Assembly (NCBI GenBank): GCA_903893785.1
Contig: CAITNQ010000344.1
Location: forward strand, 3,451 to 67,450
Reading direction: 5' to 3'
Length of the DNA: 64,000 bases
From: an uncultured Gemmatimonadota bacterium
GTDB lineage: Bacteria; Latescibacterota; UBA2968; UBA8231
Shown: in pieces, positions 17,536 through 17,944 of the stretch
Layout of the letters: each line of letters opens with the position of its first letter
Position numbering within the stretch: position 1 is the first letter of the stretch
The notes under the pieces: model-generated
What the model saw: only the letters and a program-made list of their open reading frames with translations
What the model was told of the DNA's origin: nothing
The model's database searches: none
Made by a program: the position numbers and the translations under genes

Positions 17536-17630
17536 GCCAGGCTCATCCAACCACGCGGCGGCGTCGCCGCCACGCCTGGGCGCCCAGCGCCAGCATCGCG
17601 GCCCCCAACAGCACCTGGCCGGTGGGGCCA
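17536..17630 (-). repeat. Near-identical 95-nt block (copy 2) covering the 3' end of ubiquitin gene B plus 7 nt past its stop
   Basis: See 16981-17075; the offset is 555 nt. Confidence 0.85.
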
Positions 17631-17944
17631 ACGCCCGGGACGGGTGTGCGGAGCACCAGGTGGAGCGTGCTTTCCTTCTGGATGTTGTAGTCGCTGAGCG
17701 TGCGCCCGTCCTCCAACGTTTGGCCCGCGAAGACCAGGCGCTGCTCGTCGGGCGGGATTCCCTCTTTGTCCTGGATCTTGGCCTTGACGTTCTCGATCGA
17801 GTCAGAGGGTTCCACGTCCAGGGTAATCGTCTTGCCGGTCAGCGTCTTGACGAAGATCTGCATCGCCACGGCCGGCCCCGTGGCGAGCAGCAGGGCGGCC
17901 AAGGCCAGCGCCAAGGGCGCTGCGTTCCGGTTCTGGATCATCAT
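17543..17944 (-). CDS. Exported ubiquitin homologue B: signal peptide + ubiquitin core (17648-17863) + C-terminal sorting-type tail
   Basis: ORF 17543..17944. Protein: [27 protein letters not shown] | [72 protein letters not shown] | [34 protein letters not shown]. 66/72 core residues are identical to eukaryotic ubiquitin (hand count). Confidence 0.93.

Follow-up and report, generated by a model that had tools for sequence, protein, structure and literature searches.

The stretch analyzed here, a window of 64 kb from contig CAITNQ010000344.1, contains two head-to-tail open reading frames (ORFs) on its minus strand that encode small ubiquitin proteins, at 17543-17944 (copy B) and 16988-17392 (copy A). 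Each protein consists of a putative Sec signal peptide, a ubiquitin domain, and a C-terminal tail with the three-part layout of a protein-sorting signal. The initial annotation had described this tail at the end of both proteins; the ORFs and the translated coordinates agree with it, and the tail regions, at 17543-17647 and 16988-17092 on the minus strand, translate as it had given them. The features of the two genes are the following.

17543..17944 (-): copy B gene, 133 amino acids; signal peptide, ubiquitin, and IPTL-CTERM-like tail
17864..17944 (-): copy B Sec signal peptide, 27 amino acids, with an AxA cleavage site immediately ahead of ubiquitin Met1
17648..17863 (-): copy B ubiquitin domain, residues 1-72 (PF00240, translation, and alignment)
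17618..17641 (-): copy B signature motif VPGVGPTG, the equivalent of IPTLxxWG (residues 102-128 against TIGR04174 positions 1-27, and motif controls)
17570..17617 (-): copy B hydrophobic helix, 16 residues (translation)
17555..17569 (-): basic cluster RRRRR of copy B, with VVG and the stop codon after it (translation)
16988..17392 (-): copy A gene, 134 amino acids; signal peptide, diverged ubiquitin, and the same tail
17309..17392 (-): copy A signal peptide, 28 amino acids (translation)
17093..17308 (-): copy A ubiquitin domain (alignment and translation)
17063..17086 (-): copy A signature motif IPAVGPTG (alignment to the hidden Markov model [HMM] and translation)
17015..17062 (-): copy A hydrophobic helix, 16 residues (translation)
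17000..17014 (-): copy A basic cluster RRRRR (translation)
16981..17074: homogenized repeat, copy A side, 94 nucleotides, from the GPTG codons to the stop codon plus 7 nucleotides of 3' flank
17536..17629: homogenized repeat, copy B side, 93/94 identical to 16981-17074

Both ubiquitin domains were recognized by PF00240 far above its gathering score of 25.4 bits (copy B, E = 1e-29, 102.6 bits; copy A, E = 2.6e-27, 94.8 bits), and ubiquitin chains in the PDB were the closest solved structures, with a match of about 1e-40. Copy B is identical to eukaryotic ubiquitin at 66 of 72 residues (92%). It keeps L8, H68, and V70, has V for I44, and retains K6, K11, K27, K29, K33, and K63, while position 48 has Q instead of K. 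Copy A shares 72% identity with eukaryotic ubiquitin and 69% with copy B; its substitutions include K48 to Q, K63 to H, K11 to R, and H68 to N. Neither protein contains a cysteine. Both domains stop at residue 72, in LHLVLR (copy B) or VNLVVT (copy A), so that neither offers an LRGG end for activation by E1; the tail follows after only 2-3 linker residues, with no intervening domain, and the alignment thus confirms that the Gly-Gly end has been replaced. Compared with eukaryotic ubiquitin as described by PF00240, the window proteins therefore carry a signal peptide, lack L73-G76, and have Q at position 48 in both copies, and their genes encode single units rather than polyubiquitin or a ribosomal fusion. 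The signal peptides, whose n/h/c layout was judged by eye from the translation, have a basic n-region, a hydrophobic core, and AVA or APA directly before the MQIF with which ubiquitin begins.

The G+C content at third codon positions is 0.87 for both genes, similar to that of the flanking genes, and several independent lake and freshwater assemblies, as well as four runs from lakes or freshwater, contain identical copies; both findings argue that the genes are native to this genome. Contigs of the host MAG (metagenome-assembled genome) lie in the ENA assemblies ERZ1426664, ERZ1426820, ERZ1426837, ERZ18644181, and ERZ27313369 and in the lake runs. The DNA of the window is likewise present in lake-water and freshwater metagenomes, and the copy B gene was also called in 9 metagenome contigs. 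RNA runs had only 4% of words in common, which most likely represent eukaryotic ubiquitin transcripts, and thus gave no sign of expression. The two paralogs are best explained as a eukaryote-type ubiquitin that was gained by horizontal transfer and is exported by the bacterium.

The two copies have diverged unevenly. Their ubiquitin-coding DNA is identical at 163 of 216 positions (75.5%), whereas the tail DNA is identical at 93 of 94 (16981-17074 against 17536-17629), synonymous sites included, which indicates that the two tails underwent recent gene conversion. Two contigs of another assembly, L001 (3651-3674) and L003 (1047-1070), differ from the window only by a deletion of exactly 555 bp that runs through this repeat, removes copy A, and leaves the body of copy B followed by the downstream flank of copy A. 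Such a single-copy form could be a recombinant haplotype or could result from collapse during assembly; in four other runs, both copies are covered, by contigs that break at the repeat.

Similarity of the tail to IPTL-CTERM

In both proteins, the tail consists of the motif [I/V]P[A/G]VGPTG, a Gly/Ala-rich hydrophobic helix of 16 residues, and RRRRR followed by three residues (VVG) up to the stop codon, which is the tripartite layout that the initial annotation had recognized. By eye, it had named IPTL-CTERM as the nearest class and had proposed a scan with sorting-signal models. In that scan, IPTL-CTERM (TIGR04174) was the top-scoring NCBIfam sorting model for both copies and for P0241, a protein from a related organism discussed below, with positions 1-27 of its 27 positions aligned; choice of family and full-length alignment thus agreed with the assignment by eye, while the scores (copy B, 19.3; copy A, 18.8; P0241, 18.5 bits) stayed under the curated cut-off of 20.5 bits. 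The alignment also places the signature differently from the earlier description, in which GPTG was treated as a motif in its own right: IPTL falls on VPGV or IPAV, and GPTG falls on the following "xxWG" positions, with the W missing. IPAVGPTG and VPGVGPTG thereby keep the proline and the final glycine of the signature, and I/V and V for L are conservative exchanges.

The contribution of each part was assessed by rescoring edited tails against the IPTL-CTERM model. The native tail scored 18.9 bits. Scrambling the nine motif residues abolished the match, and putting a Ser/Thr linker in place of the motif reduced it to 7.4 bits; exchanging the motif proline for alanine gave 13.4 bits, and scrambling the helix gave 12.0. 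Conversely, a single exchange of Thr for Trp (GPWG) raised the score to 23.5 bits, above the cut-off, and the canonical IPTLSEWG raised it to 36.2. Approximately 11 bits are therefore owed to a motif in the right register, and the shortfall is owed to the missing Trp. The MYXO-CTERM and JDVT-CTERM models, which gave 9-17 bits on the tails against cut-offs of 20-27, behaved differently: their matches survived destruction of the motif and are therefore generic. No match to the PEP-CTERM or GlyGly-CTERM models was found in the tails at E ≤ 10, nor do these contain a PEP or GlyGly signature. All IPTL-type tails that we examined additionally matched positions 31-65 of the NCBIfam model "midcut-by-XrtH". 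These cross-matches fit NCBI naming, in which IPTL-CTERM is presumably paired with exosortase H (XrtH), a pairing that the literature searched did not confirm.

The window proteins share with IPTL-CTERM proteins an N-terminal signal peptide and, at the extreme C-terminus, a proline signature, a Gly/Ala/Leu-rich helix, and a basic cluster; they differ in having IPAV or VPGV for IPTL and GPTG for xxWG, and in their sub-cut-off score. For sorting tails below threshold, the published curation rule looks for a place at the C-terminus, the three-part layout, and homology that extends into a trusted instance (PMC3237569). The window tails are C-terminal and tripartite, and ubiquitin homologs from other bacteria (L068, L024, and L074, described below) carry trusted IPTL-CTERM tails. 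We therefore regard the tail as a predicted near-threshold, Trp-less variant of the IPTL-CTERM signal. The suggestion that it defines a new or rare sorting class does not hold up against these trusted tails on ubiquitin homologs elsewhere.

Putatively exported ubiquitin in other bacteria

A scan of one genome per prokaryotic species yielded at least 180 ubiquitin-encoding stretches. Around 50 of these lie on long bacterial contigs, where the common layout is a signal peptide, the junction AxA|MQIF, and ubiquitin. The same junction, present in copies A and B, is the consensus among 53 bacterial homologs.

In several of these bacteria, an IPTL-type tail follows ubiquitin directly, as in the window: Denitrificimonas caeni (L068; GIPTLSQWG, TIGR04174 33.0 bits), Kapabacteria (VPTLPEWG), Luminiphilus (L005 and L062; VPTLP or VPALP), and Desulfatiglandaceae (VPAVSDWG). 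Four relatives carry the NCBIfam domain "choice-of-anchor U" behind ubiquitin, and two of these four, Paracidovorax valerianellae (L024; 30.9 bits) and a Comamonadaceae metagenome-assembled genome (MAG; L074; 30.2 bits), end in an above-cut-off IPTL-CTERM after that domain. No IPTL-CTERM match at E ≤ 1 was found for the two ubiquitin-"choice-of-anchor U" copies of a Rhodocyclaceae MAG. The gene next to that of P. valerianellae encodes an unrelated, adhesin-like protein with an IPTL-CTERM tail of its own (42 bits). Identity clustering of the ubiquitin domains did not group the window proteins with the other IPTL-tailed ubiquitins, 72 residues giving too little signal.

Other anchors were found as well. 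A Pfam scan of the 53 signal-peptide-ubiquitin proteins detected an autotransporter beta-domain in 12, SLH domains in 3, a type IX secretion system (T9SS) C-terminal domain in 3, and the Pfam IPTL-CTERM domain in 3, while others contained Ig-like, cadherin-like, or leucine-rich repeat domains. A domain intended for display on the surface would show just such a variety of anchors.

The ubiquitin module makes up the N-terminal part of surface proteins in many phyla (among the loci, L006, L010, L015, L016, L028, L029, L037, L042, L047, L051, L066, and L077). It is mostly 80-92% identical to eukaryotic ubiquitin, and E16D and T22S are common to most of its members; these shared substitutions hint at a single acquisition followed by spread among bacteria. 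Directly after ubiquitin residue 72, copy B (17636-17650), P0241, and one Luminiphilus protein (L005) all read R-T-P, and the whole ubiquitin-tail cassette might thus have moved between phyla.

Some members of the family lack any further domain. In Collimonas (L023, 5848-6177), the gene encodes only a signal peptide and a full-length ubiquitin ending in LRLRGG, and in Dyella jejuensis (L009, 9860-10306), it encodes a signal peptide and a ubiquitin ending in LRLRGY; a second Dyella locus (L012) is of the same kind. These proteins would be freely secreted ubiquitin, in Collimonas with an intact Gly-Gly end. In Actinomycetota (L069, 9707-10768 and 13453-14286; L044; L060), ubiquitin opens proteins in which no signal peptide is obvious; Thr/Pro-rich linkers and Ig-like regions come next, and a sortase-signal-like LAFTG or NPNFTG lies near the end. 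Finally, many of the stretches from the scan belong to short contigs of isolate assemblies (approximately 300 bp to 2.4 kb) that encode head-to-tail polyubiquitin or ubiquitin-ribosomal fusions without a signal peptide. These contigs (L018, L032, L034, L052, L054, L057, L059, L061, L065, L067, L070-L073, L075, L076, L079-L081, and L083), several of which have very low coverage given in their names, look like eukaryotic contamination of bacterial records.

Relatives of the locus and its gene context

An exhaustive HMMER search with the 40-residue tail against 1.84 billion representatives returned one match, P0241. This protein consists of a signal peptide, a ubiquitin domain 78% identical to eukaryotic ubiquitin, and TPVPGLGPAGQLVLAAVMLALAAEAWRRRARAPR, a tail that is 58% identical to that of the window and carries the motif VPGLGPAG. 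Its contig contains the flanking genes of the window on both sides (HpcH, Ldh_2, Amidohydro_2, and BKACE on one; Amidohydro_2, SDR, metallophosphatase, STAS, and kinase on the other), without the DUF11 cluster, the URO-D-like gene, and the 546-amino-acid gene. The gene for ubiquitin and tail has therefore been kept in a related organism, and the link to DUF11 proteins has not. On contig L084 of a related organism, a single ubiquitin-tail gene (8680-9042) lies between the same metabolic genes that flank the locus at 8-36 kb of the window, and the approximately 17 kb in which the window has four genes for DUF11 surface proteins, the URO-D-like gene, and the 546-amino-acid gene are absent. The DUF11 cluster beside the ubiquitin genes thus looks like a lineage-specific insertion. 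A 41-residue tail query against a word index gave no candidate, and a search with the full-length protein was dominated by eukaryotic polyubiquitin and held no information on the tail.

The DUF11 genes are transcribed divergently from the ubiquitin genes. Three smaller DUF11 proteins are followed by one of 2408 amino acids (23237-30463, plus strand), which combines DUF11 repeats with invasin/Big_1 and SdrD-B-like regions and an internal OmpA domain.

We surveyed approximately 74 kb of the genome for a sorting enzyme, namely the window (64 kb) and 10 kb on its right-hand side. Essentially all credible window ORFs were compared with Pfam or NCBIfam, and all frames were scanned for polytopic membrane proteins. 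Two candidates were considered and rejected. A protease with GAF and CPBP (Rce1-like) domains (53360-54790) scored 35 bits, compared with 130 for MrtS, and such an enzyme needs a Cys, which the tail does not have; a polytopic protein of 927 amino acids (55212-57995), considered as an exosortase, is transporter-like with HEAT repeats. The two belong to a run of three consecutive genes on the minus strand (53360-57995), encoding a HEAT-repeat protein with approximately 11 membrane helices (920-927 amino acids), a cNMP-binding protein, and the GAF-CPBP protease, and this gene order is kept in other contigs. The 10 kb to the right of the window contain an FGE-sulfatase-like gene, helicase/nuclease genes, and an aldolase-family gene. 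In other bacteria, the search for a sorting enzyme beside the ubiquitin-IPTL genes turned up transporters and SecF but no such enzyme.

Interpretation and comparison with known systems

Taken together, the reading that we favor, with a probability of roughly 0.55, is that ubiquitin is an exported, surface-displayed cargo here and that the tail is a generic anchoring and sorting device, processed as a variant of IPTL-CTERM. Ubiquitin is best seen as a displayed passenger because the module is joined to many kinds of anchor, sometimes with domains in between. Export through Sec and cleavage by signal peptidase would place the mature N-terminus at Met1, and the periplasmic ubiquitin would be held transiently by the tail helix, and the arginines would remain on the cytoplasmic side. 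An enzyme of the exosortase family, with its gene elsewhere in the genome, would then cut at or near the motif and would presumably pass the protein to the cell surface or matrix, as it does other cargo of the signal class. A displayed ubiquitin would most likely mimic, or bind to, the proteins with which eukaryotic grazers or hosts recognize ubiquitin, or else act against other bacteria in the manner of BfUbb.

Several observations weigh against processing of the tail and would fit a tail that serves only as a C-terminal membrane anchor and stays uncut. In that case, the ubiquitin would be tethered on the outer face of the inner membrane, and its likeness to IPTL-CTERM would be a relic of a cassette from another phylum or convergent. 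All three tails score 1.2-2 bits under the TIGR04174 cut-off, the conserved Trp of the signature is missing from the window tails, and the Pfam model PF18203 (IPTL-CTERM) has no match to the window proteins at E ≤ 1. Short sorting-signal HMMs moreover respond generically to any helix with an Arg cluster, as illustrated by the 23.8 bits that MYXO-CTERM gave on the artificial linker construct. Nor was another substrate found. The tail is present in only two ORFs of the window, both for ubiquitin; no further window protein has it, including the neighboring DUF11 proteins, for which the ORF survey agrees with what had been noted before. Its sole match among the 1.84 billion representatives is another ubiquitin. 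A metagenome scan with the tail alignment gave 382 pattern stretches, none of which passed tblastn, probably on account of a short, low-complexity query, and a degenerate DNA pattern for MLAL[GA]A[QE]AWRRR found no match in the metagenome collection.

The gene context points the same way. As the initial annotation had stated, no sorting enzyme is adjacent to the ubiquitin genes, and the survey extends this: the 64-kb window yielded no exosortase, archaeosortase, rhombosortase, or dedicated CPBP sortase, and the 10 kb on its right yielded no sorting enzyme. Lastly, the arginine decarboxylase encoded at 60213-62126 shares 86% identity with proteins from MAGs of Candidatus Krumholzibacteriia, and a host in the Krumholzibacteriota, as this match suggests, falls outside the usual range of the IPTL-CTERM model, which we take to be beta/gamma-proteobacterial. 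An S-layer protein of Methylomirabilis is nonetheless an IPTL-CTERM protein (PMC8671808), so cargo of this class can reach the surface outside the Proteobacteria. An enzyme with one or two targets is usually encoded beside them, while enzymes with many targets are normally unlinked (PMC3237569). By comparison with such dedicated systems, a tail carried by few proteins with no enzyme adjacent would run contrary to habit; if the enzyme has many targets, its absence from approximately 74 kb would be expected.

Nevertheless, we consider the uncut anchor unlikely, although it is the alternative that survives best. The Pro/Gly motif is kept in a diverged ortholog (VPGLGPAG), for which a bare anchor has no need, and some 11 bits of the IPTL-CTERM score come from this motif in the right register. 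In addition, recent gene conversion has held the two tails identical.

A bolder extension of the favored reading combines cleavage of the exosortase type with covalent joining of the ubiquitin C-terminus to an envelope lipid or polysaccharide. The cell would thereby wear a near-authentic ubiquitin coat made without E1, E2, or E3, which could engage the ubiquitin-binding machinery of protist grazers or algal hosts. We regard this as improbable; if true, the same coating logic would extend to the wider family of surface-anchored bacterial ubiquitins.

Slightly more doubtful still is the proposal of the initial annotation that the tail belongs to a new sorting class, and that its removal transfers the ubiquitin C-terminus to a lipid, glycan, or protein in a sortase-like analog of ubiquitin conjugation that is independent of E1, E2, and E3. 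The tail does stand exactly where the LRGG conjugation tail would be, within this lineage it was found on ubiquitin only, and related systems re-attach their cargo, sortase A being a transpeptidase (PMC3237569); the title of a further paper names lipid anchoring for archaeosortase substrates (PMC7157517). However, the tail is best explained as an IPTL-CTERM variant, and the same class of tail occurs on unrelated cargo, such as the adhesin-like neighbor in P. valerianellae and the Methylomirabilis S-layer protein. The same module is elsewhere joined to autotransporter, T9SS, SLH, and other anchors, in some cases with domains in between, which leaves the proposal unsupported and suggests that the C-terminus of ubiquitin is not special; no candidate enzyme or acceptor was found at the locus. 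That the genes are an artefact (contamination from a eukaryote, a chimera of the assembly, or a pseudogene in decay) is very improbable: bacterial assemblies do contain many short polyubiquitin contigs of low coverage that are evidently eukaryotic contamination (L018, L032, L034, L054, L057, and others), and some contigs have a single copy only, but the window genes have neighbor-like third codon positions and intact frames with a bacterial signal peptide and tail, their identical sequence recurs in several independent assemblies and four lake/freshwater runs, and an ortholog lies at a syntenic locus.

In the papers searched, eukaryote-type ubiquitin in bacteria is treated as a curiosity of Bacteroides, and a 2018 paper still calls B. 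fragilis the only bacterium known to have such a ubiquitin (PMC6194340). The locus and its relatives show a wider picture, in which signal-peptide-ubiquitin proteins (72-92% identical to eukaryotic ubiquitin) are spread over many bacterial phyla and are wired to every major surface-anchoring system. In the literature searched, no paper linked ubiquitin with signals of the exosortase type or treated this wider family. RefSeq proteins of this kind would be named automatically from the IPTL-CTERM model. The role of extracellular ubiquitin in bacteria thus becomes directly testable, as the culturable D. caeni and P. valerianellae have trusted IPTL-CTERM versions. For the annotation of sorting signals, the window adds an IPTL variant without Trp, from Krumholzibacteriota, which falls just short of current cut-offs. 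New here are the Trp-less tail, the phylum, and the unusual cargo; the sorting class itself is already known, and the main interest of the locus lies in what tail and cargo reveal about exported bacterial ubiquitin.

Among known systems, the closest proteins that have been studied are BfUbb of Bacteroides fragilis and BoUbb of B. ovatus, eukaryote-derived ubiquitin homologs with a signal peptide and without a terminal Gly-Gly (PMC3352274, PMC11467351). The window proteins resemble them in joining ubiquitin to a bacterial signal peptide and in lacking Gly-Gly, and the Bacteroides proteins pass into the periplasm and beyond it. BfUbb shares 61-63% identity with ubiquitin and is soluble, with a C-terminal Cys engaged in a disulfide, whereas the window proteins are 92% and 72% identical, lack Cys, and end in a membrane-sorting tail. 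BfUbb acts as a toxin on a periplasmic PPIase after import through SusCD (PMC3352274, PMC11467351).

The tail has its tripartite signal in common with PEP-CTERM/exosortase, PGF-CTERM/archaeosortase A, GlyGly-CTERM/rhombosortase, and MYXO-CTERM/myxosortase, whose presumed logic is export by Sec, a membrane tether, intramembrane cleavage, and onward sorting (PMC3237569; PMC1569441, PMC7157517, PMC11980579). Unlike the PEP-, GlyGly-, and MYXO-CTERM signals, the window tails contain no PEP, no GlyGly, and no invariant Cys. The window proteins also differ from the ubiquitin-"choice-of-anchor U" relatives, in which a domain separates ubiquitin from the tail. With "choice-of-anchor" surface proteins in general, the family shares its overall design, a signal-peptide-ubiquitin passenger fitted with alternative anchors (IPTL, autotransporter, T9SS, or SLH).

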